Shown in pieces: positions 33,411-63,737 of a stretch of DNA of 64,000 bases. The notes below the pieces were generated by a model. The model searched no databases and was not told where the DNA came from. It saw only the letters and a program-made list of their open reading frames with translations. The first letter of the stretch is position 1, and each line of letters begins with the position of its first letter. The stretch is from Sneathiella sp. (GTDB taxonomy: Bacteria > Pseudomonadota > Alphaproteobacteria > Sneathiellales > Sneathiellaceae). Location: assembly GCA_034669685.1 (NCBI GenBank), contig JAXMOU010000002.1, forward strand, positions 943,230 to 1,007,229, given 5' to 3'. A program made the position numbers and the translations under genes.

Positions 33411-36400
33411 ATGAGCACTGTTACTTCTCAGGCAGAACTAGACTTACTATCCCAAGCCGCATCAGAGTTTGGAGATGGTGTTGTTAATTTGGGTCGGGAT
33501 CCTTCCATGTTTGGCATGGAGAGTTTTACGCTAAGCGCGACTTTTGAGCTGAATAGTTTGGATGGAGGACGACAGCGGGTACTCTGGAATCATACTCAAT
33601 ATGGTATAGAAGTATACGGTGATGATTTGCGGATCGCTTTGAGAGCTTCTGATGGATCACTCGATTATTACAAAGTGCCAAATATAATTAATAATACTGG
33701 CTGGCACGATGTGCAAGTTACTTATGATGCCAGTAGTGGCGGTCTAGCGATATGGTTGGATGGCGAGAATATTTTCTCCAAAGATGAAATTGATGTGGAT
33801 CTAGGAGAGCCGCGCTATTGGGATGTGACTGCAGGGGGAACTGCTTGGGGGGATCAGCTTGATGGTCAAGTTGCGGATGTTTCATTCCACGATGAAGTCT
33901 TGGATATTGACGGGTCTCAGTCAACATATGATCGTATGTACTCACTCGATGATGGATCTCTGCCAGAGAAGATAAGCGATCAAATTGAAGACGACGAACT
34001 TGATGTTGAAATCCCTCGAGAACAGACTGAGACAGAGTTGCTGGAGTCAGCCGCATCAGAGTTTGGAGATGGTGTTGTTAATTTGGGTCGGGATCCTTCC
34101 ATGTTTGGCATGGAGAGTTTTACGCTAAGCGCGACTTTTGAGCTGAATAGTTTGGATGGAGGACGACAGCGGGTACTCTGGAATCATACTCAATATGGTA
34201 TAGAAGTATACGGTGATGATTTGCGGATCGCTTTGAGAGCTTCTGATGGATCACTCGATTATTACAAAGTGCCAAATATAATTAATAATACTGGCTGGCA
34301 CGATGTGCAAGTTACTTATGATGCCAGTAGTGGCGGTCTAGCGATATGGTTGGATGGCGAGAATATTTTCTCCAAAGATGAAATTGATGTGGATCTAGGA
34401 GAGCCGCGCTATTGGGATGTGACTGCAGGGGGAACTGCTTGGGGGGATCAGCTTGATGGTCAAGTTGCGGATGTTTCATTCCACGATGAAGTCTTGGATA
34501 TTGACGGGTCTCAGTCAACATATGATCGTATGTACTCACTCGATGATGGATCTCTGCCATCCAAACCAAATGAGGAGGATGGCCCTCTAGAAAATACGGA
34601 AGCTACTATTAGCGGCGTTGATACAGGCGCGGTTGAAGAAGACGGTGTTCTGACGGCAAAGGGTAAGTTGACAGCCGATGATGTGGATGCGGGCGAGAGT
34701 GGCTTTGTCGCCGGAACAGTTGCTGGAACATACGGGTCCTTGTCCATTGATGCTGCCGGGAATTGGGCTTATACGGCCGCCGATAGCGCGGCGCTTCAGG
34801 CGCTGGGCGCTGGGGACACTGTCGTTGATAAAATGACGGTCACGACACCTGATGGGACTACGCATACAATCGCAGTGACCCTTGAAGGATCTAATGACGC
34901 GCCGGTTATTAGTGGTGTCGATACGGGTTCAGTTGCTGAAGATGGCCCGTTGCAAACCGTTGGTAAATTGACAGCTGATGATGCTGATGCCGGTGAAAGT
35001 GGTTTTGTTGCGGGTATTGTGCAAGGTAAATATGGCGTCCTAACAATCGATGCTGCCGGGAATTGGGCGTATAATGCGTCTGGAAATGATGCGCTTCAGG
35101 CTCTTGGTGAAGGTGATGTTGTTACAGAAAAATTAACAGTGACGACAGTTGATGGGACGCCCCAGGTTATCACGGTTTCTGTATCGGGCACAGATGACAC
35201 TGTTGTTATTAGCGGCGTTGATACAGGCACAGTTGAAGAAGATGGTGTTCTGACAGCAAAGGGTAAGCTGACAGCTGATGACGTGGATGCGGGTGAGAGT
35301 GGCTTTGTCGCTGGAAAAGTTGCCGGAACATACGGATCTTTGTCCATTGATGCTGCCGGGAATTGGGCGTACACAGCGGCCGATAGCGCTGCGCTTCAGG
35401 CACTGGGCGCTGGGGATACTGTCGTTGATAAGATGACGGTGACGACGCCAGATGGCACAACGCATACCATTGCGGTGACGCTTGAAGGATCAAATGATGC
35501 ACCCGTTATTAGCGGCGTTGATACGGGCACGGTTGAAGAAGACGGTGTTCTGACGGCAAAGGGTAAGTTGACAGCCGATGATGTGGATGCGGGCGAGAGT
35601 GGCTTTGTCGCCGGAACAGTTGCTGGAACATACGGGTCCTTGTCCATTGATGCTGCCGGGAATTGGGCTTATACGGCCGCCGATAGCGCGGCGCTTCAGG
35701 CGCTGGGCGCTGGGGACACTGTCGTTGATAAAATGACGGTCACGACACCTGATGGGACTACGCATACAATCGCAGTGACCCTTGAAGGATCTAATGACGC
35801 GCCGGTTATTAGTGGTGTCGATACGGGTTCAGTTGCTGAAGATGGCCCGTTGCAAACCGTTGGTAAATTGACAGCTGATGATGCTGATGCCGGTGAAAGT
35901 GGTTTTGTTGCGGGTATTGTGCAAGGTAAATATGGCGTCCTAACAATCGATGCTGCCGGGAATTGGGCGTATAATGCGTCTGGAAATGATGCGCTTCAGG
36001 CTCTTGGTGAAGGTGATGTTGTTACAGAAAAATTAACAGTGACGACAGTTGATGGGACGCCCCAGGTTATCACGGTTTCTGTATCGGGCACAGATGACAC
36101 TGTTGTTATTAGCGGCGTTGATACAGGCACAGTTGAAGAAGATGGTGTTCTGACAGCAAAGGGTAAGCTGACAGCTGATGACGTGGATGCGGGTGAGAGT
36201 GGCTTTGTCGCTGGAAAAGTTGCCGGAACATACGGATCTTTGTCCATTGATGCTGCCGGGAATTGGGCGTACACAGCGGCCGATAGCGCTGCGCTTCAGG
36301 CACTGGGCGCTGGGGATACTGTCGTTGATAAGATGACGGTGACGACGCCAGATGGCACAACGCATACCATTGCGGTGACGCTTGAAGGATCAAATGACGC

Positions 36401-39400
36401 GCCCGTTATTAGCGGTGTTGATACAGGCACGGTTGAAGAAGATGGTGTTCTGACAGCAACGGGTAAGCTGACAGCTGATGACGTGGATGCGAGCGAAAGT
36501 GGCTTTGTCGCTGGAAAAGTTGCCGGAACATACGGATCTTTGTCCATTGATGCTGCCGGGAATTGGGCGTACACGGCGGCCGATAGCGCAGCGCTTCAGG
36601 CGCTGGGCGAGGGTGATACTATCGTTGATAAGATGATTGTTACTACATTGGATGGTACAACGCATTCTGTGGATATTGCCGTAAATGGAAAAGCGGATCC
36701 AGAGGTTGATTTGCCTAAGCAATCAGAACTTTTGTCTGCTATAGCTAGTGATTTTGGGGACGGAGTTGTAAATCTCGGGCGTGACGATGCTTTGTTTGAT
36801 ATGGATGAGTTTACAATTAGTACTACTTTTGAACTGAACTCTTTGGATGGGGGGCGGCAAAGAGTGCTCTGGAACCATACTCAGTATGGTATCGAAGTAA
36901 ATGATGACGACTTGATTGTCGGACTGAGGACAAGTGACGGACAGATGGAATATGTTCGAATTCCGGACGCATTTAGTGCGGCAGGATGGCACGATGTACA
37001 AGTCGTGTATGACGAAAACTCGACCTTAAATTTATATGTTGATGGCGCGCAGGTTTATTCTGATATGAATGTCGACGTTAGTCTTTCAGGGTCATCCTAT
37101 TGGGATGTCATCGCAGGCGGGTCTCCTTGGGGAGACGAATTAGATGGCCGCGTTGCTGATGTCTCGATTGTTGGTAATAGTAGCGAAATTTCTCAATCAG
37201 ATTCTATTTACGAAAGAATGTATGAGCTTGATAGTGAAGACTTGCTTCATATTACTCAAGCAAAAGTTGAAGAGAGTTTTGATGATGTAACTAATTATAA
37301 TCTTGAAAGTTCTTATGTCCCACCGGCTGCGGATGTTGGAGATGTTGTAACGGTTTCAAATGCGGAAGAACTTAGTGCGGTACTCTCAAGCGGTGTTTCT
37401 GGAATTACAATAAAATTAGAGGCCGGAGACTATGTGGGAATTGATATTTCAAATATTAATCCCGATCTAGAAATAGTCATCACCTCCGCTGATTTGAACA
37501 ATCAAGCTAGATTGAGCGATTTACATATTGATGGAAGTTCAAATCTAACTTTTGACGCAATCGATTTTGTTGCAAACAGTGCATCAGAGGTGGGGTATTT
37601 TATTGTTGATGTTGATGACAGTTCAAATATAAGTTTTAAAAATAGCTTGTTTGGGATGGGCACGGAGGATTTAAGGGATAGCGGCAAAATAGGTATTTCT
37701 GTCGCAGACTCAAATAACATTAGTATCTCAGAAAATGAGTTTACGTGGCTGACCCGTGGAGCTGGTTTCGATAATGTTGATGGACTTGAAGTTAATAAGA
37801 ATTACATTCATAATCTTCGAAGTGATGGGTTCAATTTTGTTGCCGTAAAAAATACCAATATTATAAACAATGAATTCTATGACATGCACCCATCTGAAGG
37901 TGATCATCCGGATTATATACAGTTTTGGACAACCGGAGCCCCAACCGGGTCATCTAACGTGTTGATTTCGGGAAATTTTATGGCTCAAAGTGGGGGGGGG
38001 GACTCTCAAGGGATTTTTATTAAAGATGAAGATAATGTTGGTCATAGCAATTTCATAATTGAAAACAACATCATTTATCAGTCTGCATACAATGGGATCG
38101 CTGTTAGTGGCATTGATGGATTGGTTCTTAGAGAGAATACAGTTGTTTCCACTGCGGAACTTGAAGAGAAATTGTGGATTATTGTATATGATGCAGAAAA
38201 CGCCGTAGTTGAGAGGAATCTTACTAATAAATTGTTGCTAGATGAAAATATTCCGTCGTTGAATAATATAATAGTGAGTATGGATGAGGAGAACTATAGC
38301 GTATGGTTCAGGGCACCGCTCAATGCAGCAACAAATGAAATTTCAGATTTTCAAATTTTACAAGAGTTCGAAGCGGGTGCAAATGTTGATAGATTGTTGT
38401 CTCAAGGAGATAGTTACGTTGGCGACAGTGCTGATAACGAACTCAAAGGCGACGAATATAACAACTTGATCAAAGGGTATTCGGGCGCGGATAGCCTCTT
38501 CGGTGGGGATGGTGACGACATTCTTTATGGTGGCTGGGGCCAAGATGTACTCGAAGGCGGCTCTGGAGATGACGTGTTTGTCTTTTTCAATGCTTTCGAT
38601 AGCGCAGGCGGTATTGGGCAGCGTGATAAGATATTGGATTTTGAGTTGGGAGATAAGATCTCATTGCAGGGCTTGGTCGATGGAGATTTATCATTTATCG
38701 GAAACGCGGATTTCTTTCTGCCATCAATGACTACAACTGATGAAGAAGAATTTTTAGCTAGAGCGGCTATAGAATTTGGGGAAGGTGTAACTAGTCTGGG
38801 GAAAGATGGTGCACTTTTTGAATTGGCAGATTTTACAATTAGCGTGACATTTGACTTGAATTCGTTAAGTGGTGGGAAACAAGCGCTTCTTTATAGTCAT
38901 ACTCAGTACGCAATTTACGTTGTGGATGATAGCTTATCGTTTGAATTTAACGGGATTAACGGAGACGTCGTTAAGGCGCAAGTTCCTGGGGTGTTTAATG
39001 AAACTGGGTGGCAGGATATTCAACTGATCCATGATACAAACAGTAATGAGATGTCTTTGTATTCGGGTGGAAAGTTAGTTTATTCACAAACAACACCCGA
39101 AGGTTTTGAAACGGCACCAAAAGCTTACTGGGATGTAACGGCTGGAGGCACACCTTGGGGGTATGCATTGGATGGTCGAGTGGCGGATGTTAGCTTTTTA
39201 GATCAAGTGTTGGAAATAGATGTAAATGAAAGTATTGTTCAAAGATCTATGTCTATTGATTATTTGGATGATTTGTTTGATTTAGGTTTAGAGACAGGTA
39301 ACGCTCAAGTAAGTTTTAATGAAGAGACTAATTTATTGTCAATTGATTTGGATGGTGATTTGTCAACTGATATGGAAATAGAATTGGTTGGTGTAAACTT

Positions 39401-39434
39401 AGAAGATTTAGGGGCTGCTGATTTCTTGATCTAG
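33411..39434 (+). CDS. Giant type I-secreted RTX protein: LamG x2 - VCBS x7 - LamG - right-handed beta-helix - RTX - LamG/secretion domain (~2007 aa)
   Basis: AGGAGA RBS before ATG 33411; no N-terminal signal peptide; repeated FTLSATFELNS...WHDVQVTYD...LDG modules; 100-aa GTYGSLSIDAAGNWAYT...GSNDAP repeats; HPDYIQFW beta-helix; GGDGDDILYGGWGQDVLEGGSGDD nonapeptides; C-terminal DLDGDLSTDMEIEL...ADFLI. Confidence 0.9.
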   Translation: MSTVTSQAELDLLSQAASEFGDGVVNLGRDPSMFGMESFTLSATFELNSLDGGRQRVLWNHTQYGIEVYGDDLRIALRASDGSLDYYKVPNIINNTGWHDVQVTYDASSGGLAIWLDGENIFSKDEIDVDLGEPRYWDVTAGGTAWGDQLDGQVADVSFHDEVLDIDGSQSTYDRMYSLDDGSLPEKISDQIEDDELDVEIPREQTETELLESAASEFGDGVVNLGRDPSMFGMESFTLSATFELNSLDGGRQRVLWNHTQYGIEVYGDDLRIALRASDGSLDYYKVPNIINNTGWHDVQVTYDASSGGLAIWLDGENIFSKDEIDVDLGEPRYWDVTAGGTAWGDQLDGQVADVSFHDEVLDIDGSQSTYDRMYSLDDGSLPSKPNEEDGPLENTEATISGVDTGAVEEDGVLTAKGKLTADDVDAGESGFVAGTVAGTYGSLSIDAAGNWAYTAADSAALQALGAGDTVVDKMTVTTPDGTTHTIAVTLEGSNDAPVISGVDTGSVAEDGPLQTVGKLTADDADAGESGFVAGIVQGKYGVLTIDAAGNWAYNASGNDALQALGEGDVVTEKLTVTTVDGTPQVITVSVSGTDDTVVISGVDTGTVEEDGVLTAKGKLTADDVDAGESGFVAGKVAGTYGSLSIDAAGNWAYTAADSAALQALGAGDTVVDKMTVTTPDGTTHTIAVTLEGSNDAPVISGVDTGTVEEDGVLTAKGKLTADDVDAGESGFVAGTVAGTYGSLSIDAAGNWAYTAADSAALQALGAGDTVVDKMTVTTPDGTTHTIAVTLEGSNDAPVISGVDTGSVAEDGPLQTVGKLTADDADAGESGFVAGIVQGKYGVLTIDAAGNWAYNASGNDALQALGEGDVVTEKLTVTTVDGTPQVITVSVSGTDDTVVISGVDTGTVEEDGVLTAKGKLTADDVDAGESGFVAGKVAGTYGSLSIDAAGNWAYTAADSAALQALGAGDTVVDKMTVTTPDGTTHTIAVTLEGSNDAPVISGVDTGTVEEDGVLTATGKLTADDVDASESGFVAGKVAGTYGSLSIDAAGNWAYTAADSAALQALGEGDTIVDKMIVTTLDGTTHSVDIAVNGKADPEVDLPKQSELLSAIASDFGDGVVNLGRDDALFDMDEFTISTTFELNSLDGGRQRVLWNHTQYGIEVNDDDLIVGLRTSDGQMEYVRIPDAFSAAGWHDVQVVYDENSTLNLYVDGAQVYSDMNVDVSLSGSSYWDVIAGGSPWGDELDGRVADVSIVGNSSEISQSDSIYERMYELDSEDLLHITQAKVEESFDDVTNYNLESSYVPPAADVGDVVTVSNAEELSAVLSSGVSGITIKLEAGDYVGIDISNINPDLEIVITSADLNNQARLSDLHIDGSSNLTFDAIDFVANSASEVGYFIVDVDDSSNISFKNSLFGMGTEDLRDSGKIGISVADSNNISISENEFTWLTRGAGFDNVDGLEVNKNYIHNLRSDGFNFVAVKNTNIINNEFYDMHPSEGDHPDYIQFWTTGAPTGSSNVLISGNFMAQSGGGDSQGIFIKDEDNVGHSNFIIENNIIYQSAYNGIAVSGIDGLVLRENTVVSTAELEEKLWIIVYDAENAVVERNLTNKLLLDENIPSLNNIIVSMDEENYSVWFRAPLNAATNEISDFQILQEFEAGANVDRLLSQGDSYVGDSADNELKGDEYNNLIKGYSGADSLFGGDGDDILYGGWGQDVLEGGSGDDVFVFFNAFDSAGGIGQRDKILDFELGDKISLQGLVDGDLSFIGNADFFLPSMTTTDEEEFLARAAIEFGEGVTSLGKDGALFELADFTISVTFDLNSLSGGKQALLYSHTQYAIYVVDDSLSFEFNGINGDVVKAQVPGVFNETGWQDIQLIHDTNSNEMSLYSGGKLVYSQTTPEGFETAPKAYWDVTAGGTPWGYALDGRVADVSFLDQVLEIDVNESIVQRSMSIDYLDDLFDLGLETGNAQVSFNEETNLLSIDLDGDLSTDMEIELVGVNLEDLGAADFLI
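33455..34559 (+). repeat. Direct repeat of 511 bp, two copies (33455-33965 and 34049-34559, offset 594)
   Basis: By-eye comparison shows identical DNA; the translated LamG modules and the antisense shadow ORFs are also identical. Confidence 0.9.
34608..36700 (+). repeat. Tandem array of seven 300-bp VCBS/cadherin-like units (A-B-A'-A-B-A'-A''), including an identical ~868-bp duplication
   Basis: ISGVDTG codons recur at 34608, 34908, 35208, 35508, 35808, 36108 and 36408; 34630-35497 is identical to 35530-36397 line by line (offset 900). Confidence 0.92.
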
Positions 39435-39558: not shown

Positions 39559-40803
39559 ATGGTAATGGGTAAAAGTAGGCGCAACGCAATTATATTTGTG
39601 TTTTTTCTAATCCTCACCTTACCCATTATCCTCTATGTGGGTGATATTAGGTTTTCAGTTTATCGGCTTTTTTTTCTGATAACGATTGGCCCTCTGTTTT
39701 TTCTTTGGGCCTCACAATCTGTCCGAAAAATAAATATTGTTGATATTCTTCTGATATTCTTCTGTATTTGGTCAAGTGCGGCCATAATAGTTAATCACTC
39801 TATTTCTGGAATGTGGCAAGCTGTTGGGGTTCAATTTATTGAGACGCTTGGACCATATTTGTTGGGTAGCTTATTAATACGAAATAAAGAAGATTTTAGA
39901 AAATTCATTAAGTATTATTTTTTAATAATATTGATATTCATTCCAATTGGGGTGATTGAATCATTAACAGCCAAGCAGGTGATAAATGATTTTTTTGGAA
40001 TGATTTTTCAGACATTCGAATGGTCTAACTATCCTCCAAGATTGGGTTTTTACAGAGTTCAAACTGTATTTGAACATCCTATACTCTTTGGTGTCTTTTG
40101 TTCTTCTGGCTTTTCTTTAGTTTACTTTTTGGGATTCAAAGGAAAAAGAGTTCGTAAAAGTAAATTTAAAGCCTTCCTAGTGATGTTTTGTACGTTTCTA
40201 TCTTTATCGATGGGGGCTTACGTTGCGGTCATTATACAAATAGGTATGATGGTTTGGGGGCATTTAACAAGGCGAATAAAAAATTCTTGGCTATGGCTGA
40301 TACTAGGCTTTGCGCTTATTTATATAGTTATTGATATCTTGTCCAATCGCTCGCCTGTTGCAGTGTTTGTGACTAAGTTTACATTTGACTCTCACACTTC
40401 TTATTTTCGAATTTTGATATGGGATCATGCAACTAGGAATGTTGCTGAAAACCCACTTTTCGGCCTTGCCTTTCACGAATGGAAAAGACCTTATTGGATG
40501 CCGCCAAGTATTGACAATTATTGGCTTGTCATTGCAGTTCGGTTTGGACTTCCTGCACTAATTTTTATGGTCGGTGGGTTCTTGTATTTGTTTTTAAAGA
40601 TTGCCTATACTAAATTTTCTGATCCAGTAGTTGCAGAAGCGAAAAAGGCTTATCTATATACATTGACAGGCCTTTTCGTAGCAATGTGTACAGTACACTT
40701 ATGGAACGCAACTTATGTCTTCTTCATGTTTTTAATAGGCGCAGGGGTTTGGTTCTTGAATCCTAAAACCTCTAAATCATTGGAGGAGGAGATAAAGAAA
40801 TAA
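39559..40803 (+). CDS. wzy: Wzy polymerase / O-antigen ligase-family membrane protein
   Basis: About 10-12 TM segments; RVQTVFEHPILFG, SLSMGA, FRILIW, SIDNYWL; located in an EPS cluster. Confidence 0.75.
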   Translation: MVMGKSRRNAIIFVFFLILTLPIILYVGDIRFSVYRLFFLITIGPLFFLWASQSVRKINIVDILLIFFCIWSSAAIIVNHSISGMWQAVGVQFIETLGPYLLGSLLIRNKEDFRKFIKYYFLIILIFIPIGVIESLTAKQVINDFFGMIFQTFEWSNYPPRLGFYRVQTVFEHPILFGVFCSSGFSLVYFLGFKGKRVRKSKFKAFLVMFCTFLSLSMGAYVAVIIQIGMMVWGHLTRRIKNSWLWLILGFALIYIVIDILSNRSPVAVFVTKFTFDSHTSYFRILIWDHATRNVAENPLFGLAFHEWKRPYWMPPSIDNYWLVIAVRFGLPALIFMVGGFLYLFLKIAYTKFSDPVVAEAKKAYLYTLTGLFVAMCTVHLWNATYVFFMFLIGAGVWFLNPKTSKSLEEEIKK

Positions 40804-40833: not shown

Positions 40834-41637
40834 ATGACAAATAAAATAAAACAGTCTTTTGTCGTAATTGCTCTTGTAAATAACGATAAAACCTTAATGG
40901 AAAATTTAATGCGCTCTCCAATGATTGCTTCTGGGGAGGTAAAGGTACATGTGATCCGCGATGCAATTTCTGCGTCAAAGGCGTATAACGAAGCCATTGA
41001 AGAATTTCCAGGAGAAATAAAGATATTTGCACATCAAGATATCTATTTTCCCGGAAATTGGTTAGATAATTTAAAGCTCTCAATTCGAGAATTAAATTTG
41101 ATGGATGCTGCTTGGGTTTGGCTGGCTCCTTTCGGAGTTTCAAATCAAAATATTCACGTTGGTGAAGTATGGTCTTCAAGTCTGGGAGGCATAATAGGTG
41201 CTAAGCCTAATGGGTTCGTTGAAGCTCAGAGTTTTGATGAAATGACGTTAATTTTAAATGCTGATTCCGATAGTAGGTTTGATGAGCGGCTGCCTGGTTT
41301 CCACTTGTTTGGTACAGATATAGTGTGCACAGCAAAAGCCAATGGCAAGAAATGTTATATTTCTGATTTACCCCTTGTCCACAACGATTCATTCCATAAG
41401 CAGTTAGGTGCAGACTTTGTCGAGTGTTATCTGTTTATGTTGAGAAAGTGGTTTAGGGAATTGCCTATTAGAACCCCTGTTTTGTGGATTGACTGGGTAG
41501 GCTGGAGCTTATGCATACAGCGTTTGAAAATGTGGAAATCTATAGAAAAACGTAGATCTATTGCTTTAAATACAGATTTAGACCCTCAGGAAATTGCCCA
41601 AAAGTGTAATTGGGAAAAGCCGAGTGAGTCTAATTGA
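40834..41637 (+). CDS. GT-A fold glycosyltransferase (GT2-like)
   Basis: SASKAYNEAI, FAHQDIYFP, SFDE, FDERLPGFHLFGTDIV. Confidence 0.8.
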   Translation: MTNKIKQSFVVIALVNNDKTLMENLMRSPMIASGEVKVHVIRDAISASKAYNEAIEEFPGEIKIFAHQDIYFPGNWLDNLKLSIRELNLMDAAWVWLAPFGVSNQNIHVGEVWSSSLGGIIGAKPNGFVEAQSFDEMTLILNADSDSRFDERLPGFHLFGTDIVCTAKANGKKCYISDLPLVHNDSFHKQLGADFVECYLFMLRKWFRELPIRTPVLWIDWVGWSLCIQRLKMWKSIEKRRSIALNTDLDPQEIAQKCNWEKPSESN

Positions 41638-52051: not shown

Positions 52052-52055
52052 TTGC

Positions 52056-54443: not shown

Positions 54444-56540
54444 GTGAAGCAAAAAGGAAGTGCGTTCCTTAAAGAAACGCTCGATAAATGTAAAAAAGCA
54501 TTTGTAATTGTTGCAGTCTTTGGTCTGTGCATAAACTTGCTTATGCTAACGGCCCCGCTTTTTATGATGCAGGTTTTTGATCGTGTGATTACCGGCCGAA
54601 ATACAGATACTCTGATAATGTTGATGATAGTTGCGGTAATTGCATTGACGACAATGGCCGCACTCGAATCTATTCGAACCTTTGTTATGGTGCGATTAAG
54701 TGGCTGGCTTGATCGCAGGCTTGGGGCAATTTCGCTAACCGCCAGTATCTATGCCACTCTTAAAAAAGGAGAAGATGCTAATGTTCAGGGGCTTAGGGAC
54801 CTGAGCACCTTTCGTTCTTTTCTTACTGGCGCAGGCATTTTCCCAATTTTAGATATGCCTTTTGCGCCAATCTTTCTGGGGTTTATGTTTTTACTTCATC
54901 CATTGCTTGGGGGAATAGCATTGATGGGGGCGGGGATATTGTTTTCGTTTGCTCTTTTTAATGAAATGGTCACACGAAAATCTCTGGCTCAAGCTAGTCA
55001 GCAATCGATTGCTGCAATGACCTATGCGGAAGCTGCTTCGCGGAATGCGGATGTCATTGAAGCGATGGGAATGTTGCCAAATTTATTGGCTAAATGGAAT
55101 AAATCCAATGAACAGGCACTCGTCCTGCAGGCACAGGCAAGTGACCGGGGCGGGTTGGTATCATCTTTCTCTAAGTTCTTCAGAATGGTGTTGCAAATAG
55201 GTGTTTCTAGTGCGGGCGCCTGGCTTGTCATAAAAGGTGAAATGTCAGCAGGCTCTATGATCGCTGGATCCATGATTATGGGGCGTGCTTTGGGACCGGT
55301 TGAGCAGGCCATTGGCACATGGAAGGGGTTCATTGGTGCCCGTGCAGCATACGGGCGATTGAAAGCAAAACTTGCTGATACAGAGGTCGAGGGCAAAACA
55401 ATGCCCTTACCTCGTCCCAAGGGAAATATTGACATTGAAAATGTTAGCTATGTTCATTCGGGGCATACGGAACCTGTGCTTCGAAACGTTAGTTTTCGAA
55501 TTAGTGCCGGCGAAATTGTTGGGCTGATTGGCCCGACGGCCGCAGGCAAATCAACGTTAGCTCGAATAATGGTCGGTAATTTGAACCCTCGTGGAGGTCA
55601 TGCCCGACTTGATAATATGGATGTTTCCGAATGGCCAGCGGCAGATCGCGGGCAATATATAGGGTACTTGCCACAGGATGTAGAGCTGTTTGCAGGAACC
55701 ATTCGAGAGAACATATCACGTATGGCTGAAGGAGATGCCGATTTGGTGGTGGAGGCCGCCAACAAAGCGGGCGTCCATGAAATGATTTTACGGATGGAGA
55801 AGGGGTACGAAACACAAATTGGTGATGGCGGTGCCGCACTTTCTGGTGGACAGAGGCAGCGCATTGCCTTGGCAAGAGCGATTTATGGAAATCCTTGTTT
55901 ATTGGTTTTAGATGAGCCAAATGCTAATCTGGACAGCGATGGTGAAAATGCCTTGATGCAGGCAATTGATGTGTTGGCTGGTGAAGGAATGACTGTAGTT
56001 GTTGTTGCACATCGCCCAAATGTACTTCGTTTTGCTGATAAAATTGTGGTTTTGCGGAATGGCATGGTCGATGACTTTGGATATCGCGACGAAATTCTCG
56101 AGAAACTCCAAGGACCGCAAAAACCAGCCTTGGCCTCGCCGACAGCTTTTACGACTAAAGCTGCCGAACCCTCCCTGCAACTGGGGCAGGCTGCTACATC
56201 CCCTCAGGATACAAGGGGGAGAAAGAACAGTCGAAAGAACACAGATAGTGGGAATGATGCTGCCGCTCGGATGAGCAGAATGCAGGCCATTAAACAGCGA
56301 AATATTGACCGTGCAAAAGAGAGAGCAGAGCAGAAGAAAAATTTACGCTCTGCAGCTCCAAATGTCCGTAAAAGTAATCACGAATCCGATGCGATCCAAC
56401 CGATCAGTAGAGAGGTTAAAGCTGAAATCCTCTCGCTTGCAGGCAGGAGTTTGAGCGAAGAAGAAGTTTCTGAAATTTATAAATTATATTCTTCCGGTGA
56501 TAAGGAAAATATGCTGCGAAAACTCAAGGGTGTCGGCTGA
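54444..56540 (+). CDS. prtD: Type I secretion ABC permease/ATPase (PrtD-type) with a C-terminal extension
   Basis: NLLMLTAPLFMMQVFDRV, GPTAAGKST, GYLPQDVELFAGTIRENI, LSGGQRQRIALARA, VLDEPNANLD; about 140 extra residues after the NBD. Confidence 0.9.
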   Translation: MKQKGSAFLKETLDKCKKAFVIVAVFGLCINLLMLTAPLFMMQVFDRVITGRNTDTLIMLMIVAVIALTTMAALESIRTFVMVRLSGWLDRRLGAISLTASIYATLKKGEDANVQGLRDLSTFRSFLTGAGIFPILDMPFAPIFLGFMFLLHPLLGGIALMGAGILFSFALFNEMVTRKSLAQASQQSIAAMTYAEAASRNADVIEAMGMLPNLLAKWNKSNEQALVLQAQASDRGGLVSSFSKFFRMVLQIGVSSAGAWLVIKGEMSAGSMIAGSMIMGRALGPVEQAIGTWKGFIGARAAYGRLKAKLADTEVEGKTMPLPRPKGNIDIENVSYVHSGHTEPVLRNVSFRISAGEIVGLIGPTAAGKSTLARIMVGNLNPRGGHARLDNMDVSEWPAADRGQYIGYLPQDVELFAGTIRENISRMAEGDADLVVEAANKAGVHEMILRMEKGYETQIGDGGAALSGGQRQRIALARAIYGNPCLLVLDEPNANLDSDGENALMQAIDVLAGEGMTVVVVAHRPNVLRFADKIVVLRNGMVDDFGYRDEILEKLQGPQKPALASPTAFTTKAAEPSLQLGQAATSPQDTRGRKNSRKNTDSGNDAAARMSRMQAIKQRNIDRAKERAEQKKNLRSAAPNVRKSNHESDAIQPISREVKAEILSLAGRSLSEEEVSEIYKLYSSGDKENMLRKLKGVG

Positions 56541-56567: not shown

Positions 56568-57881
56568 ATGGATACAACAAAAACCGCTAACCTTGACGCG
56601 CTTGGTATCGCAAAGCCTGCTTGGGTTGGGTTGTTCGTAATTGCCTTGTTTTTTGGCGGTTTTGGAAGTTGGGCGGCGCTGGCCCCACTGGGAAGTGCTG
56701 CAATCGCGACAGGTGTTATTAGCGTCGAGGGAAGCCGAAAAACAATTCAGCATTTTGAAGGTGGGATCATCTCGCAAATCCTGGTGAAAGATGGAGATGT
56801 TGTTAAAAAAGGGGATGCATTAATTGTTCTCGATAATACGCAGGCAGAAGCGTCTTTGCAGCTTGTCTATGGCCGCAAAATGGTTGCGCTTGCTGAATTA
56901 GCTCGACTGGAAGCTGAAAGGGACAATGCTGCTTCAATAGATTTCGACGAATGGCTGCTGTCGCGAAGTGAAGATCCAAATGTTTTAAAGGCCATGGAAA
57001 GCCAGAGAAACATTTTTGAGGCCCGGTTGCTGGCAAGGCAGGGGCAAATTACGATTTTGAACCAAAAAATCTCCCAGCTAGATGAGGAAATCAAAGGCCT
57101 TCAAAATCAGATCCTCTCAACCAATGAACAGACTAAGCTGATTAATTTAGAGCTCAAAGATGTTGCAACACTGGTAAAGAAGAAACTCGCGAAGACTACC
57201 AGGCTTAGAGCGTTGCAACGAAATGCTGCCGAGCTTTCCGGCGCTAAAAGTCAAAGTGTTGCCCGTATTGCGCAATCAAGACAGGCGATCGGCGAAATAC
57301 AACTGCAAATCACTGAACTTCAAAACGCGGTATTGAATGAAGCCGTTGCAGATCTCAAAAATGTTCAGGCCCAGTTATTTGATTTAGAAGAGCAAGAGCG
57401 ATCTTCCCGTGATGTGTTGAACCGGACCGAAATCGTAGCGCCAACGTCCGGTGTCGTTGTTAGTATGGCCGTCCATACAGCCGGCGGCGTGATTAGAAGT
57501 GGTGAGCCGCTCATGGAACTTGTGCCGATGGATCAAGCTTTATTGGTACAGGCTAAAGTTAATCCGTCTGATATTGACGTTGTGCATATTGGCGCATCAG
57601 CGCGCATTACCTTTCCAGCCTTCAGTCAACGAGACGTATCCCCCGCCGATGGTTCAGTTATCAATGTTTCGGCAGATAGCTTGACAGATGAGCGAACCGG
57701 AGAGTCCTACTACCAAGCGCTTGTCAAAATTGACAATCTGGAAGTTGCCAATATCAATATTGAACAACTCCGCCCTGGTATGCAGGCTGATATCATGATC
57801 GCGACAGGTGAGCAAACGGCTCTTCAATACTTTTTGAAACCAATACTGACCAGTTTCAATCGCGCGATGAAAGAGCAATAA
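56568..57881 (+). CDS. prtE: Type I secretion membrane fusion protein (HlyD/PrtE)
   Basis: FGSWAALAPLGSAAIATG, IQHFEGGII, long coiled coil, APTSGVV, LRPGMQADIMIATGE. Confidence 0.92.
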   Translation: MDTTKTANLDALGIAKPAWVGLFVIALFFGGFGSWAALAPLGSAAIATGVISVEGSRKTIQHFEGGIISQILVKDGDVVKKGDALIVLDNTQAEASLQLVYGRKMVALAELARLEAERDNAASIDFDEWLLSRSEDPNVLKAMESQRNIFEARLLARQGQITILNQKISQLDEEIKGLQNQILSTNEQTKLINLELKDVATLVKKKLAKTTRLRALQRNAAELSGAKSQSVARIAQSRQAIGEIQLQITELQNAVLNEAVADLKNVQAQLFDLEEQERSSRDVLNRTEIVAPTSGVVVSMAVHTAGGVIRSGEPLMELVPMDQALLVQAKVNPSDIDVVHIGASARITFPAFSQRDVSPADGSVINVSADSLTDERTGESYYQALVKIDNLEVANINIEQLRPGMQADIMIATGEQTALQYFLKPILTSFNRAMKEQ

Positions 57882-57889: not shown

Positions 57890-59443
57890 TTACTCGTTCG
57901 GAACGTATCTGGGAAGAACCTCAAACAATTCGGTTGCAAAATCAGATAGGCGCTTGTCAGCGATGATTTCTGACATCTCGGTTGTAACGGGCATTGTTAA
58001 TCTGACCAATGCCCCGTCTGTACGATTAGACATTAAGCCACCAGCGAGTAAATTGAACTTGGCGAGATATTCGTTTGCAATGTATTTCCCACGTTGCTGG
58101 AACCAGTAATAAACAAGCAAACGTTGTTCGCCTTTTCCAATCATCACTCGATTGACAGGCACATTTGTGCCATTGTTGTTAAGTTCAATGGTTGTTAAAT
58201 CTGTAATTTTCCAACCACCTGAAGGAATACAGACGCGCGGTGAGTGAGGTGTTCGTCCCGCCGACTGCTGCTCATAATAGCCAATGAACAAAGAAACTGT
58301 CGGCAGATCCTTCTCTCGGTAATGTCCAAGGAAATAGTCACTCATCTGCAAGATTTCTTGTTCTATTCCAGGTAACTGATCCTCTTCGGCAATCATGTTG
58401 TTAATTTTCAGAGGAAAACTTGCAAAGGTTGCTCTTTCTGGAATAACGGGATCAATGGACCGTAAGAAATAGGACAGAGGCCCAAGGAGCAAGCATAGAA
58501 CAATAACAGCATACACCGGCGTCATTGTTTTTGGGGATTGCTTCTTTGAAGTCTCAGCTTCTATTTTTAGGACGCCATTTCCGATAGTTGCTTTTTCTTT
58601 TTTGGTTAGCGTTAGCCAGCAAACAGCAAGTGTTAAGGCGAATGAAATAAGGAAGAAAACCCAGCCTTCAAATAAGTGGAAAAAGCCTTCGGATACGCCC
58701 ATATCAGTGAATTCAACAAAGGCACCCGTAAGGAAGATGCGAACACTGTTCATTACAATTGAAACTGCAGCGGCCAATACCAAAAATAGGCATCTTTTCC
58801 ATAGCTTGATGTCGAAGAGCATTCCCGAGAGAGCGCCGAGGCCGATCATTGGATATAGATAACGCAGACCACTACAGGCTTCTGCGACTTCCAATTTCAT
58901 TTTTCCCAGATCAATGATGTTACCATCCTGAAAAACAGTAATGCCAACCGCGCGTAGCCAGAAAACGCTTACGTCTGAAGAAAAGAGTTGCAGCCCATAG
59001 GAAAGGTTGGAGTTTAGAAAGCTAGGTGGAGGGACAACAAAAGGCAGTAGTATTAGAGACGGAAAGACATATCTTGCATAAGTATATCCGCCGAAAGTAA
59101 GGAAAAGTCCGAAAATGAGAGCGAACGTACTCAAATGGCGGACATTTTGAATGCCTGCCTTAATGGCGAGGGAGTATAAGGCAATTGAACCAATCACGAC
59201 AAGAACCCCAAGGTATCTACCGCGGGGATCAGGACGTGCCAATAAATCTTTGCGTTTCCATAAAAGGTATAGTGATACACCAAGCATCAGAGGGCCATGG
59301 CTAAACTCCTCCGAGTTCATCCAAGAGTCCCAAAGTAAGTGAGCATCCGGGGCGTAAAAGACTAAAACAAGCAATATGCTTAAAGGCAATAAAAACTTTG
59401 ACCAGTCTGTCTTGTGACCTGAAGAGTTTATCATTTGCGTCAC
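57890..59443 (-). CDS. xrtD: VPLPA-CTERM-specific exosortase fused to an EpsI domain
   Basis: FSHGPL, VAEACSGLRY (Cys), NSVRI (Arg), EGFFHLFEGW (His); EpsI-type HSPRVCIPSGGW and VYYWFQQRG; VPLPA-CTERM substrates in the same window. Start uncertain (59434-59494). Confidence 0.85.
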   Translation of the reverse strand: MTQMINSSGHKTDWSKFLLPLSILLVLVFYAPDAHLLWDSWMNSEEFSHGPLMLGVSLYLLWKRKDLLARPDPRGRYLGVLVVIGSIALYSLAIKAGIQNVRHLSTFALIFGLFLTFGGYTYARYVFPSLILLPFVVPPPSFLNSNLSYGLQLFSSDVSVFWLRAVGITVFQDGNIIDLGKMKLEVAEACSGLRYLYPMIGLGALSGMLFDIKLWKRCLFLVLAAAVSIVMNSVRIFLTGAFVEFTDMGVSEGFFHLFEGWVFFLISFALTLAVCWLTLTKKEKATIGNGVLKIEAETSKKQSPKTMTPVYAVIVLCLLLGPLSYFLRSIDPVIPERATFASFPLKINNMIAEEDQLPGIEQEILQMSDYFLGHYREKDLPTVSLFIGYYEQQSAGRTPHSPRVCIPSGGWKITDLTTIELNNNGTNVPVNRVMIGKGEQRLLVYYWFQQRGKYIANEYLAKFNLLAGGLMSNRTDGALVRLTMPVTTEMSEIIADKRLSDFATELFEVLPRYVPNE

Positions 59444-59530
59444 TGTATTGTGTCCCCCGATTTCGCATTGTGATTTCAAATAGAAATCGCCCAATTTTTG
59501 TAGGTAGTGTCTAGAATGAATTTTTAAAGT

Positions 59531-60346
59531 CTAATAATAATGTGTTTGTCTTTCAGAAGCTTTGTTTAAAACAACACCCACTAAGTTAGTCGATTGGATT
59601 TGACGGCGAGCTTCTTTAACTTCAACCGGTTTTGTCTCATCGCTTGCAACTACCAATAATACGCAGTCAACTTGCGGAAGAAATGCAATAGCATCATCTC
59701 CGGCCATAAGGGGCGGCAAGTCAAAAATAATAATTCGGCTTTCATAACGAGACCGAAGGTCCTGAACCAGAGATTTTACACGCTTGGAGGTTAGTGTCTC
59801 GGCCGAGTTTTTGATCGGAATGGTATTTGGTAAGACGACAAAACGTGGGATACCAGGATTTATGAGGATATCCTTGATTTCCGTTTGATTCTCAAGGTAG
59901 TCAAATAAACTTTTCTCGCATTTTAATCCTAAGTACTGAGAAATCCGCGGACGCCTCAAGTCAAAGTCAACAATCAAGGCGGTTTTATCAGTCTGCTTGG
60001 CTATGCTGAGGGCTAAATTTAGAGCGACAACCGTTTTCCCGCATTCGGGAGAAGGGCTCGTAATTGCAAGCGTTTTCCATCCATTCTCCTCCATTTTACT
60101 AAGCACTTGAGTTCTAAGAACATCGAAGGAGACTGAGTCAGGATCCTCACTATCAAAGGTAATGATCCGATTTGCGGCTAGATGTTTGGTGTCAAGTTTG
60201 ACAACCTGCGTCTCGTTATACAAAATTTCTTCATTTTCAACCTCAGGAGTTCTGCGGTTTGAAGAAATGATGCCTGAATGTTTATGAGCGGGCGTCGTTT
60301 GTTGTGATGATTTCGCTCTGGAGATTGCGTCTTTGATACGTTCCAA
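59531..60346 (-). CDS. Stand-alone CpsD/CapB-type tyrosine kinase
   Basis: ITSPSPECGKT (Walker A), LIVDFDLRRP (A'), IIFDLPP (B), GVVLNK, C-terminal HYY; TTG start with GGAGG RBS. Confidence 0.88.
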   Translation of the reverse strand: MERIKDAISRAKSSQQTTPAHKHSGIISSNRRTPEVENEEILYNETQVVKLDTKHLAANRIITFDSEDPDSVSFDVLRTQVLSKMEENGWKTLAITSPSPECGKTVVALNLALSIAKQTDKTALIVDFDLRRPRISQYLGLKCEKSLFDYLENQTEIKDILINPGIPRFVVLPNTIPIKNSAETLTSKRVKSLVQDLRSRYESRIIIFDLPPLMAGDDAIAFLPQVDCVLLVVASDETKPVEVKEARRQIQSTNLVGVVLNKASERQTHYY

Positions 60347-60355: not shown

Positions 60356-62017
60356 CTAAAAAGGTAAAATATTCATGCGTTCCGCAGCAGCCCAGGCCCT
60401 GTAGAACAGAATATCCAACGGTTTATAAAATATATGAATAAGAGAAAGGCTGACGGCAAGTACGATTGCGGGTGCCAGAAGTAAGGCGCCTAGCTTGTAG
60501 CGCTTTTTTTGAATATCTCTTTGTGTTTTGATAAAGGGAATCGCGACCAGCGGGGGGTGTTTTAAAAGCGCTTCGAGCTCTTTGGAGGTGCGAACCCGGC
60601 GATCTACGAGCTCGATTAGAACTGCAGTTCCGAAACCGGTTGCAAATGCCAGAAATACACCAATCCCTATAAATTTTGGTCGATTAGGCCAAACAGGTTC
60701 TGTTGGTACGATCGGAGGTTCCAGAAGGAGAAACCTCTCTGCTTTTTTCTCTTCTTCAAGGTTTTGAGCTAATCGCGCTTTACCCTGTTTGGCTTCAATT
60801 TCTTCGTACTTAGCTAATATTTCTCGCTGTGTTCGATTTAAAACAAGCAGGCCTCTCTCTACTTCTGGGGTTTTGAGAATTAATTTTTCGGTTTCAGCCG
60901 CTTTTGCCCGAAGTTGTTTAAGCTGCTCAACTGTATTCTCTGTAGCCTGCTTATTTGAGGAGAGGCGTATATTTATACGTTGGATCAATTGTTCTTGTGC
61001 TGGGTTTGTCGTTTTTCCGCTTTTTGTCTCAATTCCATCACTGGCCTCGGCTGCAAGTTCGTCAGCAATTTGAGTTTCTAACGCTGCTACTTTTCTTTGA
61101 AGTGACTTTACTGTTGGATGTCGCTCTGTTAGCTGTGTCAAGGCCTGCGTTAATTGATCTTTAGTTCGCTGCAACTCTAGTTCAGTGGTGTTGTCGGGCG
61201 TTTCAATAGTCCCAGATCTATTTACTAGACCAGATTTCGCGGAACTTAATTCTAGCTCAAGATATTTACGCTCATCCCGGAGCGCATCTAGTTGCCGCTC
61301 AGCTACTTTAATTTCTGATTGAATGCGTTCTAGTCCGCCTAGCCTTAGTTCCAGATGCTCAGGCAGGCTTTCGCTGTGTTTGCTTTTATATTCTGAGATC
61401 GCATTTTCAGTTGTGGTAAGGGCATCTCGAAGTTTCTTGGCTTCTTGCTGAAGAAATTGTGTTGTTTCCGATGCTCTTTCTGTTCTTGTTTTGACGTTCT
61501 CACTCAAGAATAAAGTAACGAGCTCATTTGCGACTTTAGCTGAAATCTGGGGGTCTTCGTGTTGGAAGCCGACTTTAAATGCAATTGTTGTTGCGCCGCG
61601 CCTATTGGAGCCAACTTCTGAAGTTATTACATCAAGCGTAATCAATTCTTGCATTTGCTCAATGAGTTCAGAGACAGAAAGTCTTTTGCGGTCTTCATTA
61701 AAAACAGAGTATTTATCAATAATCTTCAAAAGATTACTGCGCGTCATGACTCTTTGTTGAATGATTGTAATTCGCTGGTTGGGGTCGGAAGTGACAGTTG
61801 ATTGAACAAGCTCAACAGGAATTTGCTGAGATTCAACAAGTACTGTGCCCACTGATTCATATCGTTGAGGAATCAAATAAACGACGACCACTGCGAGAAT
61901 TGCCCCAATTATCGCCGGCACTAAGAAAAAGAAAAACCGTCGCTTGGCGATGGCAAGGATCATTGAAAGATCAAATGATCCTTCCTCTTCTTCCTGTTGA
62001 TAGTAATCTGTAGCCAT
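60356..62017 (-). CDS. Polysaccharide co-polymerase / chain-length determinant (Wzc N-terminal / GumC type)
   Basis: Two TM segments flanking a coiled coil; YESVGTVLVESQQIP, LTERHPTV, LLEPPIVPTEPVWPNR. Confidence 0.88.
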   Translation of the reverse strand: MATDYYQQEEEEGSFDLSMILAIAKRRFFFFLVPAIIGAILAVVVVYLIPQRYESVGTVLVESQQIPVELVQSTVTSDPNQRITIIQQRVMTRSNLLKIIDKYSVFNEDRKRLSVSELIEQMQELITLDVITSEVGSNRRGATTIAFKVGFQHEDPQISAKVANELVTLFLSENVKTRTERASETTQFLQQEAKKLRDALTTTENAISEYKSKHSESLPEHLELRLGGLERIQSEIKVAERQLDALRDERKYLELELSSAKSGLVNRSGTIETPDNTTELELQRTKDQLTQALTQLTERHPTVKSLQRKVAALETQIADELAAEASDGIETKSGKTTNPAQEQLIQRINIRLSSNKQATENTVEQLKQLRAKAAETEKLILKTPEVERGLLVLNRTQREILAKYEEIEAKQGKARLAQNLEEEKKAERFLLLEPPIVPTEPVWPNRPKFIGIGVFLAFATGFGTAVLIELVDRRVRTSKELEALLKHPPLVAIPFIKTQRDIQKKRYKLGALLLAPAIVLAVSLSLIHIFYKPLDILFYRAWAAAERMNILPF

Positions 62018-62216: not shown

Positions 62217-63737
62217 CTAATACGCATTTTTATTAATAAATCCGACAAATGCGGTCATGATCAAGATTTGGATATCAAATAATAACGACCAGTTTTCGCA
62301 ATAATACATGTCATGCTGAACGCGGGCTTCCATTTTATCAAGGGTATCAGTTTCGCCTCTTAGCCCTTTAACCTGTGCCCAGCCCGTAATACCTGGCTTA
62401 ACGCGGTGGCGTCCAAAATACCCTTCGATAAGCTCGGAATATTCTTCATTATGATCAACTGCATGGGGGCGTGGGCCAACTAGCGACATGCTGCCAAGAA
62501 ACACATTCAAAAGCTGAGGGAGTTCATCCAGACTTGTTTTTCGAATGAAACGCCCGACTTTTGTGATGCGAGGATCATTTTTGGTTGCCTGCTTAGTCGT
62601 TTTTACTGGGGCATCGCCGTGATACATGGATCGGAATTTATAGATTTCAAACTCTTGATTGTTATATCCGAACCGCTTCTGTTTAAAAAGCACGGGCCCT
62701 TTGCTTTCCAGTCTGATCGCGAGTGCAAGGCATAAAAAAACAGGTGAAAATAAAAGGAGAAGAATTGCACTGAAAATTTTGTCTTCCAGCCATTTAACCA
62801 TGACACCCCAGCCAGATAGAGGAGAGTCGATTACCTCAATCATAGGAATGCTACCAAAATGCTTGGGGGAAGGTTTGTTGGGAAAACGAAACCCGACCAG
62901 GTCCGAGACTAAATGGACATGGGCTGGCAATTCCCTAAGTTGGCTGACAATTTCCACCTGCCGGTCATCCGCATTCCAAGGCAGAGCGACAATAATATCA
63001 TCCACATGGTTTTTTCGGCAATATTGCTTAAGTTCTTCGATATTTCCTTTGATGGGAAATTCTAGCAACTTTTTATCGATCCGTGAGGCACGATCATCAA
63101 AAATGCCAATCACAAAATTCATTGGGTATTTTTGACTTTCAGTCAGAGTCTTTATGAGATGGCTTGCCTGAGGTCCGGCGCCAACAATTGCAATATTTCG
63201 CCGGATGAGGCCATTTCGCGCAAAAAAACGAAGGCCGCTATATCCAATAAACCTCGCAAGGGAAAGATAAAGTATGCCCAGACCAAAAAAGCTATAAATC
63301 CAGACACGGGAAAATTCACCCGAAATATTCAAGGAAAATGCCAGAGCCAGAAGTAGCAAGATGGTGATCAGAAAGGCTGCAGCTATTCGCGACGTTGTCT
63401 GCAGAGGAGCCATGATGGCAGAAAAATCATAAATACCAGCATAGCGGCCAACGAAAAAATAAGAGCTGAAAACAAAGAAGATGGCGAATAAATAAATTTC
63501 GCGAATATATGTAGGGTTACCGATAACAATTGCATAAGCTGTGAATCCAGCGGCAGCTATCAGTAAGGTGTCAATTAGACTAAATAACCCAGACAAAACC
63601 GTTGACGAAAGCGGATAGCTCTTGTCTTTGGTGGGGAGATGCTTTTGATCCTGAATAACACTCAACCTATTCATCCAAGTTAATTTTTCCAATAGTTGCT
63701 CAACTTCTTGGTGATCATCTAGGGCTGTTATATACAT
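62217..63737 (-). CDS. Undecaprenyl-phosphate glucose phosphotransferase (priming GT; WcaJ/PssA/SpsB-like)
   Basis: Four N-terminal TM segments and a CoA-binding-like domain; KFRSM, DPRITKVGRFIRKTSLDELPQL, SLVGPRPHA, VKPGITGWAQV. Start may be ATG 63674. Confidence 0.9.
   Translation of the reverse strand: MYITALDDHQEVEQLLEKLTWMNRLSVIQDQKHLPTKDKSYPLSSTVLSGLFSLIDTLLIAAAGFTAYAIVIGNPTYIREIYLFAIFFVFSSYFFVGRYAGIYDFSAIMAPLQTTSRIAAAFLITILLLLALAFSLNISGEFSRVWIYSFFGLGILYLSLARFIGYSGLRFFARNGLIRRNIAIVGAGPQASHLIKTLTESQKYPMNFVIGIFDDRASRIDKKLLEFPIKGNIEELKQYCRKNHVDDIIVALPWNADDRQVEIVSQLRELPAHVHLVSDLVGFRFPNKPSPKHFGSIPMIEVIDSPLSGWGVMVKWLEDKIFSAILLLLFSPVFLCLALAIRLESKGPVLFKQKRFGYNNQEFEIYKFRSMYHGDAPVKTTKQATKNDPRITKVGRFIRKTSLDELPQLLNVFLGSMSLVGPRPHAVDHNEEYSELIEGYFGRHRVKPGITGWAQVKGLRGETDTLDKMEARVQHDMYYCENWSLLFDIQILIMTAFVGFINKNAY

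Follow-up and report, generated by a model that had tools for sequence, protein, structure and literature searches.

Exosortase-bearing exopolysaccharide (EPS) loci include the XrtA/PEP-CTERM EPS and floc-formation systems (Haft 2006, PMC1569441), among them the zooglan locus of Zoogloea. In the sphingan clusters, WelI is a peptidyl-prolyl isomerase (PPIase)-like protein, WelJ is an AAA ATPase, GelN/WelN belong to the EpsI family and AtrB/D form a type I secretion system (T1SS) (PMC9197254, PMC7899989), whilst WelR, proven to be a welan lyase, combines parallel beta-helix repeats with a Laminin_G_3 domain and lacks a signal peptide (PMC7899989). Here we analyse a 64,000-nt stretch of Sneathiella DNA (the window, G+C ~44%) by open-reading frame listing and Pfam and NCBIfam scans of its proteins, and describe an EPS locus of ~30 kb at positions 33411-63737. 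The original prediction presented this locus as a relative of the sphingan pathway, wired to VPLPA-CTERM protein sorting, and as a candidate undescribed system. We find instead an ordinary member of the catalogued XrtD kind that is related only distantly to the sphingan (gellan/welan) pathway: it is probably the single exosortase-associated, Wzx/Wzy-dependent EPS locus of its host, of the XrtD/VPLPA-CTERM type and with an XrtA-like export core.

The exosortase and its export core

The window exosortase scored 463.1 bits on the XrtD model (cut-off 400), compared with 276 bits for XrtW, 189.9 bits for XrtA (cut-off 208) and 99.6 bits for XrtV (cut-off 313), and carries an EpsI domain at its C-terminus (TIGR02914, 123 bits, residues 376-530; PF11984, E = 4e-51). 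A genome-wide scan found this XrtD-EpsI fusion to be the sole exosortase of the genome. Three further components, the tetratricopeptide lipoprotein PrsT, the TIGR03016 outer-membrane protein (OMP) and the short TIGR03027 exporter, likewise exceeded their NCBIfam cut-offs. The exosortase is 84% identical to that of Sneathiella glossodoripedis and 62-74% identical to those of ~20 other Sneathiella genomes; by these identities the host is a marine Sneathiella species (Alphaproteobacteria, Sneathiellales) and no sphingomonad, as the original prediction had required of it.

Outside the genus, XrtD homologues with 35-39% identity occur in Methylobacter, Thiodiazotropha, Povalibacter, Steroidobacteraceae and a Zixibacteria metagenome-assembled genome (MAG). 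As homologues in Gammaproteobacteria and Zixibacteria score 540-590 bits on the XrtD model, mostly with PrsT adjacent, loci combining XrtD and PrsT are a widespread and already modelled kind. The suggestion of an undescribed system has to be dropped accordingly: its families are all catalogued and the public annotation already names them. Uncultured Gammaproteobacteria and Methylococcales also have split PssD and PssE genes beside XrtD and PrsT, 47% and 36-40% identical to those of the window, and the split pair thus recurs in XrtD loci across classes.

A motif scan detected ~18 proteins across four contigs with a C-terminal tail consisting of VPLP[AP], a transmembrane (TM) segment and basic residues, two of them beside the locus; we regard all as candidate XrtD substrates. 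The two neighbouring genes flank the left side of the locus, so candidates for the dedicated sorted proteins expected here do exist, although at 30429-31130 and 32142-32777, just outside the range in which they had been placed. The single rhomboid protease of the genome lies ~88 kb from the locus.

Gene content and limits of the locus

The set of genes that had been reported within these 30 kb was recovered in full and in place by the open-reading frame, Pfam and NCBIfam analyses, and the view that nearly all have functional counterparts in the gellan cluster is correct and agrees with the literature (PMC9197254, PMC7899989). The genes, with the two tailed proteins to their left, are as follows.

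30429-31130, plus strand: VPLPA-CTERM protein 1, with Sec signal, Gly/Ser-rich body and VPLPA, TM segment and basic tail; weak Pfam PEP-CTERM match at the tail
32142-32777, minus strand: VPLPP-CTERM protein 2, with VPLPP, TM segment and basic tail; candidate XrtD substrate
33411-39434, plus strand: giant T1SS substrate, 2007 aa, with LamG, VCBS/cadherin-like, right-handed beta-helix and RTX parts
39559-40803, plus strand: Wzy-type polymerase (PF04932), ~8 predicted TM segments
40834-41637, plus strand: GT2-like glycosyltransferase (PF13712, under cut-off)
41638-42948, plus strand: Wzx flippase (PF01943/MatE)
42983-43852, minus strand: TIM-barrel protein of aldo-keto reductase (AKR) fold, 289 aa (predicted structure)
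43892-44986, minus strand: Gfo/Idh/MocA NAD(P)-dependent sugar oxidoreductase (Pfam/NCBIfam, clear assignment)
45041-45520, minus strand: PssE/Alg13-like glycosyltransferase catalytic half (NF041548, 108.7 bits, cut-off 120)
45517-45972, minus strand: PssD/Alg14-like glycosyltransferase membrane half (NF041549, 76 bits, cut-off 110)
46014-46943, minus strand: GT2 glycosyltransferase (Pfam/NCBIfam)
47291-49693, plus strand: PrsT lipoprotein with TPR repeats (TIGR02917, 325 bits, cut-off 312; lipobox LAAC)
49759-50730, plus strand: XrtA-system-type AAA ATPase (TIGR03015, 294.8 bits, cut-off 324.5)
50747-52051, plus strand: Sec-exported right-handed beta-helix protein, 434 aa (predicted fold; homology to the beta-helix of the giant protein)
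52056-53555, minus strand: PEP-CTERM-system outer-membrane beta-barrel protein (TIGR03016, 163.9 bits, cut-off 90.85)
53572-54231, minus strand: short Wza-like outer-membrane polysaccharide export (OPX) lipoprotein, 219 aa (TIGR03027, 231.7 bits, cut-off 180; lipobox LTAC)
54432-56540, plus strand: PrtD-type T1SS ABC permease/ATPase (TIGR01842, 696 bits, cut-off 510)
56568-57881, plus strand: HlyD-type T1SS periplasmic adaptor (TIGR01843, 380 bits, cut-off 209)
57890-59494, minus strand: XrtD exosortase-EpsI fusion (TIGR04152, 463.1 bits, cut-off 400)
59531-60346, minus strand: tyrosine autokinase, a separate BY-kinase polypeptide (TIGR03018, 169 bits, cut-off 231)
60356-62017, minus strand: polysaccharide co-polymerase (PCP), the chain-length determinant (TIGR03007, 242.5 bits, cut-off 279)
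62217-63737, minus strand: WcaJ-type undecaprenyl-phosphate glucose-1-phosphate transferase, the priming enzyme (TIGR03023, 496 bits, cut-off 411)

We place the right end of the locus at 63737 because the housekeeping genes folD, argG and rlmN come next, which rules out an extension in that direction. To the left of the tailed proteins, a secreted 679-aa protein (27598-29637) has a TPR region at its N-terminus and matches RHS repeats weakly. TolC-type genes are present elsewhere in the genome. The absence of rml genes from the window was borne out: the nearest rmlC lies ~19 kb to the right, past folD, argG and rlmN, at position 1026401 of contig C2, with another copy on contig C3. An NDP-sugar dehydrogenase adjoins the nearer rmlC (C2:1025042-1026913, ~18 kb right of the window), and the pair probably belongs to a separate O-antigen or sugar-nucleotide cluster.

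Of the additions to the sphingan gene set that had been proposed, PrsT, the oxidoreductase with its neighbour and the second beta-helix gene are indeed present, whereas the names "redox pair" and "lyase" given to the latter two are functional readings that go beyond the gene content. The 289-aa neighbour of the oxidoreductase had no Pfam or NCBIfam match, and 947 cluster representatives match it at E <= 0.001; those of its homologues whose genomic surroundings were looked up lie on contigs of only ~1.5 kb. Its structure model is an AKR-like TIM barrel (mean local confidence, pLDDT, 92; TM-scores 0.55-0.65). A canonical AKR catalytic tetrad is doubtful because the invariant columns of the family alignment include no Tyr, Lys or His. 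We consider the family a candidate new sugar-modifying enzyme family of polysaccharide loci.

The giant RTX protein and its beta-helix relative

The 2007-aa protein has no signal peptide and is built, in order, of two LamG domains, seven VCBS/cadherin-like repeats, a LamG domain, a right-handed beta-helix, RTX repeats, a further LamG domain and a C-terminal secretion tail. Within its gene, seven 300-nt tandem repeats in exact register occupy 34607-36706, with copies 1-3 nearly identical to copies 4-6, and a 300-nt LamG stretch in the region 33455-36706 occurs twice, 594 nt apart and with 100% identity; the repeat copy number could reflect mis-assembly.

The beta-helix of the giant protein shares 23% identity over 290 residues (E = 1e-5) with the 434-aa protein, which by sequence makes the two distant homologues or paralogues, and the invariant motifs H-x-D-x-[IF]-Q-x-W and Q-G are found in both as well as in proteins of sphingomonad loci. 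The domain of the giant protein has stand-alone relatives, mostly beta-helix/RTX proteins of 530-670 aa, of which those with names come from Sphingomonas, Sphingosinicellaceae and Caulobacteraceae, whilst the family of the 434-aa protein is spread over many phyla. The model of the 434-aa protein (pLDDT 94) has a fold matching several lyases (PL9, PL6, rhamnogalacturonan lyase and RbmB of Vibrio) and the AlgE/AlgG epimerases, which marks it as a predicted polysaccharide-active beta-helix. Against the sequences of solved structures, both beta-helix proteins were matched in RTX repeats and nothing more.

The public gene call of the second beta-helix protein begins at ATG 50888 and yields 387 aa, cutting off the signal peptide, whereas homologues start with a signal peptide followed by F-Y-V-D-P. 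Within the region 50711-52051, a GTG start at 50747 gives 434 aa with a plausible Sec signal ending V-E-A, and the deposited start is therefore probably too far downstream.

Comparison with WelK-bearing loci of sphingomonads

As a marker for sphingan-type loci we used the NCBIfam WelK equivalog model (NF046028, cut-off 400), a proxy for the named gellan, welan and diutan producers. A search of 401 genomes spread evenly over the class, with at most three per family, gave no match. A family holding WelK was then picked by a 16S signature pattern, a choice backed only afterwards by the WelK matches, and in this family, which we infer to be Sphingomonadaceae, 25 of 401 genomes exceeded the cut-off, genuine WelK proteins scoring 416-537 bits. 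The neighbours of WelK in the top-scoring genome encode an EpsD-like PPIase, an EpsL-like OMP, an EpsE-like Wza, an EpsF-like PCP and an EpsG-like kinase, together with exosortase V (326 bits, cut-off 313), type V EpsI (230 bits, cut-off 228), a priming transferase and a 746-aa beta-helix/RTX protein.

Twelve WelK loci were compared. The full block of OMP, Wza, PCP, kinase, XrtV and EpsI_V was present in six, in an order which we take to be the published gelF-D-C-E-M-N. Matches to PrtD and HlyD lay within 40 kb in 2 of the 12, with a PrtD/ABC match alone in three more, and a lyase-like protein was found in four; in some loci a beta-helix/RTX protein stands beside the priming transferase. The first two loci were unlike the textbook gellan cluster, one showing WelK and the PPIase alone and the other having no T1SS nearby. 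WelK equivalogs mostly lie in exosortase-V loci, so that the WelK loci of Sphingomonadaceae are themselves exosortase loci, and because XrtV and EpsI_V take the gelM/gelN position there, these loci and the Sneathiella locus are true but distant cousins.

The distance is apparent when identities are compared with those to non-Sneathiella XrtD loci, even though the flanks covered only 10 kb for XrtD loci and 20-30 kb for sphingomonad loci. XrtD reached at best 54% identity (91% cover) in XrtD loci against 25% (49% cover) in sphingomonad WelK loci, the kinase 54% against 31%, the PCP 40% against 21%, Wza 34% against 30%, PssD 47% against 28% and PssE 40% against 29%, whilst the ATPase (61%) and PrsT (38%) had matches in XrtD loci and none in WelK loci, where the window OMP was also without a match. 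Overall, core identities to XrtD loci were 34-61% over near full length, those to sphingomonad loci 21-31% and often over partial length. The kinship with sphingans that had been proposed is real but remote, and the core proteins are clearly closer to XrtD loci of other taxa than to the sphingomonad loci, an outcome that the original prediction had itself named as refuting it. The priming transferase is at a similar distance from both (39-40%).

Matters were different for the T1SS pair (38% and 33%) and the beta-helix/RTX part of the giant protein (26-35%), which found partners in sphingomonad WelK loci only and none within 10 kb of other XrtD genes. The combination of a T1SS pair with a WelR-type make-up is a sphingan feature present in the window, the WelR side of this comparison coming from its published description rather than its sequence (PMC7899989), and to judge by these matches the T1SS with a lyase-like module is a genuine feature common to Sneathiella and sphingomonad loci. 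When sphingomonad proteins were the queries, the best match in the Sneathiella genome fell inside the locus for six of them (XrtV, the kinase, the PCP, WelK, the priming transferase and the lyase-like protein; 22-43% identity), whereas EpsI_V, the OMP and the PPIase found none in that genome. The WelK model scored 79.6 and 56.3 bits on the split halves, and the EpsI_V model reached 46.9 bits in the window (cut-off 228); no GelK/WelK equivalog, XrtV/EpsI_V pair or in-cluster rml gene is present in the Sneathiella locus.

Conservation across Sneathiella

We compared 24 Sneathiella-type loci, four of which were too short to reach the segment from the priming transferase through the PCP and kinase to XrtD; the order of these four genes is kept in all 20 that were long enough. 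In four loci (S. glossodoripedis, S. chinensis and two MAGs) the genes for HlyD, PrtD, Wza, OMP, ATPase and PrsT are also found beside XrtD, and among these four a beta-helix gene between OMP and ATPase was found in S. glossodoripedis only. The part encoding glycosyltransferases, Wzx and Wzy varies among Sneathiella loci, and in other species giant or beta-helix homologues or different glycosyltransferases adjoin XrtD. A fixed export core with variable repeat-unit genes is the usual pattern of EPS loci.

Proposed working and alternative readings

Gene content, family assignments, conservation within the genus and the homology of the beta-helix modules are results of the analyses above; from them we infer the enzymatic and sorting steps and the chemistry of the product as follows. 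The WcaJ-type enzyme would place glucose-1-phosphate on undecaprenyl phosphate, and PssD/PssE, the GT2 enzyme and the GT2-like enzyme would finish a short repeat unit, with the Gfo/Idh/MocA enzyme and the AKR-fold protein as possible modifiers. The repeat unit would be flipped by Wzx and polymerised by Wzy, the split PCP and tyrosine kinase setting chain length and passing the polymer onward for export via the short Wza-like lipoprotein, the TIGR03016 barrel, PrsT and the AAA ATPase. XrtD-EpsI would cut the VPLPA-TM-basic tails of the ~18 secreted proteins, which presumably end in or on the matrix. PrtD and HlyD, with a TolC encoded elsewhere, would secrete the giant RTX protein, whose WelR-like beta-helix and LamG module probably attaches to the polymer and cleaves it extracellularly; a similar role in the periplasm is probable for the Sec-exported beta-helix paralogue. 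What is worth noting in an otherwise ordinary locus is this embedded T1SS and its putative stalk-mounted WelR-like lyase.

Several points weigh against this interpretation. Although the ATPase, PCP and kinase have their best matches among XrtA-system models, all three fall under the XrtA-specific cut-offs, and the regulators PrsK and PrsR were not found genome-wide (best 359 bits against a cut-off of 503, and 102 against 300). The VPLPA tails are known by motif alone, no NCBIfam model matching them at E <= 0.001. Both PssD and PssE halves score under their cut-offs, so that the second sugar is not assignable from models, and the acidic product once proposed is unsupported. The fold matches of the beta-helix are modest (TM-scores 0.4-0.6) and do not distinguish lyase, hydrolase and epimerase, and the idea that the giant protein acts on the polymer of its own locus draws on gene position and homology. 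Finally, a literature search for VPLPA-CTERM, XrtD, XrtV and Sneathiella EPS returned nothing relevant, neither an experimental study of any XrtD system nor a published one of a Sneathiella EPS.

Three other readings have to be set against these data. On one of them, the locus belongs to the sphingan (gel/sps/wel/dps) pathway as a specific relative that has moved to a new host, has been rewired to VPLPA-CTERM sorting and makes a sphingan-like acidic heteropolysaccharide. This reading could draw on the functional counterpart found here for nearly every sphingan gene (PMC9197254, PMC7899989), on the six sphingomonad proteins whose best genome match falls inside the locus, and on the T1SS pair and beta-helix/RTX protein, matched in WelK loci and not within 10 kb of other XrtD genes. 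We nevertheless judge it highly improbable: XrtD, PCP, kinase and Wza share only 21-31% identity with sphingomonad loci against 34-61% in the XrtD-locus comparisons, PrsT, ATPase and OMP are unmatched there, and both PssD (47% against 28%) and PssE (40% against 29%) are nearer to gammaproteobacterial XrtD-locus genes than to WelK. The model scores point the same way (WelK 80 and 56 bits against 400, XrtV 100 against 313), no in-cluster rml genes, EpsD/GelI-type PPIase or GelF-type OMP match was found, and the T1SS identities of 38% and 33% are at a generic level. An improbable reading, too, is that the product is a cell-bound capsule or lipopolysaccharide O-antigen rather than a released exopolysaccharide or matrix. 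The polymerase does match the Wzy_C/O-antigen-ligase family; however, the locus has the hallmarks of EPS and floc matrix, namely a PCP and a separate tyrosine kinase, a Wza-type OPX protein, PrsT and an exosortase (PMC1569441; for zooglan, bioRxiv 10.64898/2025.12.21.693542), and the cluster with rmlC and the NDP-sugar dehydrogenase ~18 kb away is the better O-antigen candidate.

An unlikely but more substantial alternative is a composite, in which an XrtD EPS locus stands next to an independent LapA/Bap-like T1SS adhesin, the giant protein serving attachment and playing no part in polymer processing. Its seven VCBS/cadherin-like repeats and a weak match to the BapA/LapF adhesin family fit such a role, as do the many Sneathiella species in which the T1SS does not adjoin XrtD and the XrtD loci of other classes, which show no T1SS within 10 kb. 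Yet at least four further Sneathiella loci have the T1SS between XrtD and Wza, loci without an adjacent T1SS still have giant and beta-helix homologues near XrtD, and the beta-helix of the giant is homologous both to the exported beta-helix protein of the same locus and to proteins beside sphingomonad priming transferases. A beta-helix with LamG and no signal peptide is, moreover, the make-up of WelR (PMC7899989). An XrtD/VPLPA-CTERM EPS locus with its own secreted, polymer-active protein thus remains the reading we prefer.

We add a more speculative idea, possible but on balance doubtful. The Sneathiella XrtD locus and the XrtV sphingan loci may, by common descent or by convergence, have arrived at one design: an exosortase EPS machine with its own T1SS and two tiers of trimming, one a beta-helix enzyme in the periplasm and the other a secreted lyase of the WelR type. 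The Sneathiella lyase would sit on a long VCBS/LamG stalk as a tethered depolymerase, sculpting a matrix that bears the XrtD-sorted VPLPA proteins.

With one exosortase, a compact and complete locus, ~18 candidate substrates and culturable marine isolates, Sneathiella offers a convenient place to test the action of exosortase D on its cargo, and the relation between cargo and polysaccharide. The comparison also brings the poorly understood gelM/gelN, gelF, gelI and atrB/D genes within an exosortase (XrtV) frame, which suggests that gellan and welan producers may sort proteins besides exporting polymer; no sorted cargo is described in the literature consulted on sphingan-type clusters. As with any uncharacterised EPS locus, the polymer could have useful properties.

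Relation to known systems

The Pss-I region of Rhizobium leguminosarum, with PrsD/PrsE and the PlyA/PlyB glycanases, resembles the Sneathiella locus in its split PssD/PssE and its Wzx/Wzy pathway, and there a T1SS adjoining the EPS genes secretes EPS-cleaving enzymes and cadherin-like adhesins; no exosortase or sorted proteins are known from that region.

The sphingan (gel/sps/wel/dps) and WelK/XrtV loci share with Sneathiella an exosortase-type Wzx/Wzy EPS pathway, a priming glucose-1-phosphate transferase, an Alg14/Alg13-type second transferase, an OMP, an OPX protein, a split PCP and kinase, an exosortase with EpsI and, often, PrtD/HlyD, and their beta-helix lyase without signal peptide is like the Sneathiella giant protein (PMC9197254, PMC7899989). 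They differ in that their export set belongs to the XrtB/XrtV lineage (EpsD/E/F/G/L-like), whilst that of Sneathiella is of the XrtA/XrtD lineage, in that WelK is a single fused protein, in contrast to the split PssD and PssE, and in that sphingan clusters have rml genes and a PPIase and lack PrsT. The XrtA/PEP-CTERM systems have PrsT, the TIGR03016 OMP, the TIGR03027 exporter, a Wzx/Wzy pathway and a WcaJ-type priming enzyme in common with the Sneathiella locus, in which, however, the exosortase is XrtD, the sorting motif is VPLPA rather than PEP and the genome holds no PrsK/PrsR.

Closest are the other XrtD/VPLPA-CTERM systems (TIGR04152), computationally defined and known from Methylobacter, Thiodiazotropha, Povalibacter, Thalassospiraceae and Rhodobacterales, which share the EpsI-fused exosortase over the model cut-off, the neighbourhood of PrsT, AAA ATPase, PCP, separate kinase and short Wza, and the VPLPA tails. 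Within this kind, the Sneathiella XrtD is divergent (463 bits compared with 540-590 bits, and ~37% identity to the gammaproteobacterial proteins), and three features set its locus apart: a T1SS pair is inserted between XrtD and Wza, one gene encodes a giant RTX protein that includes a lyase-like module, and another encodes a second, exported beta-helix protein.

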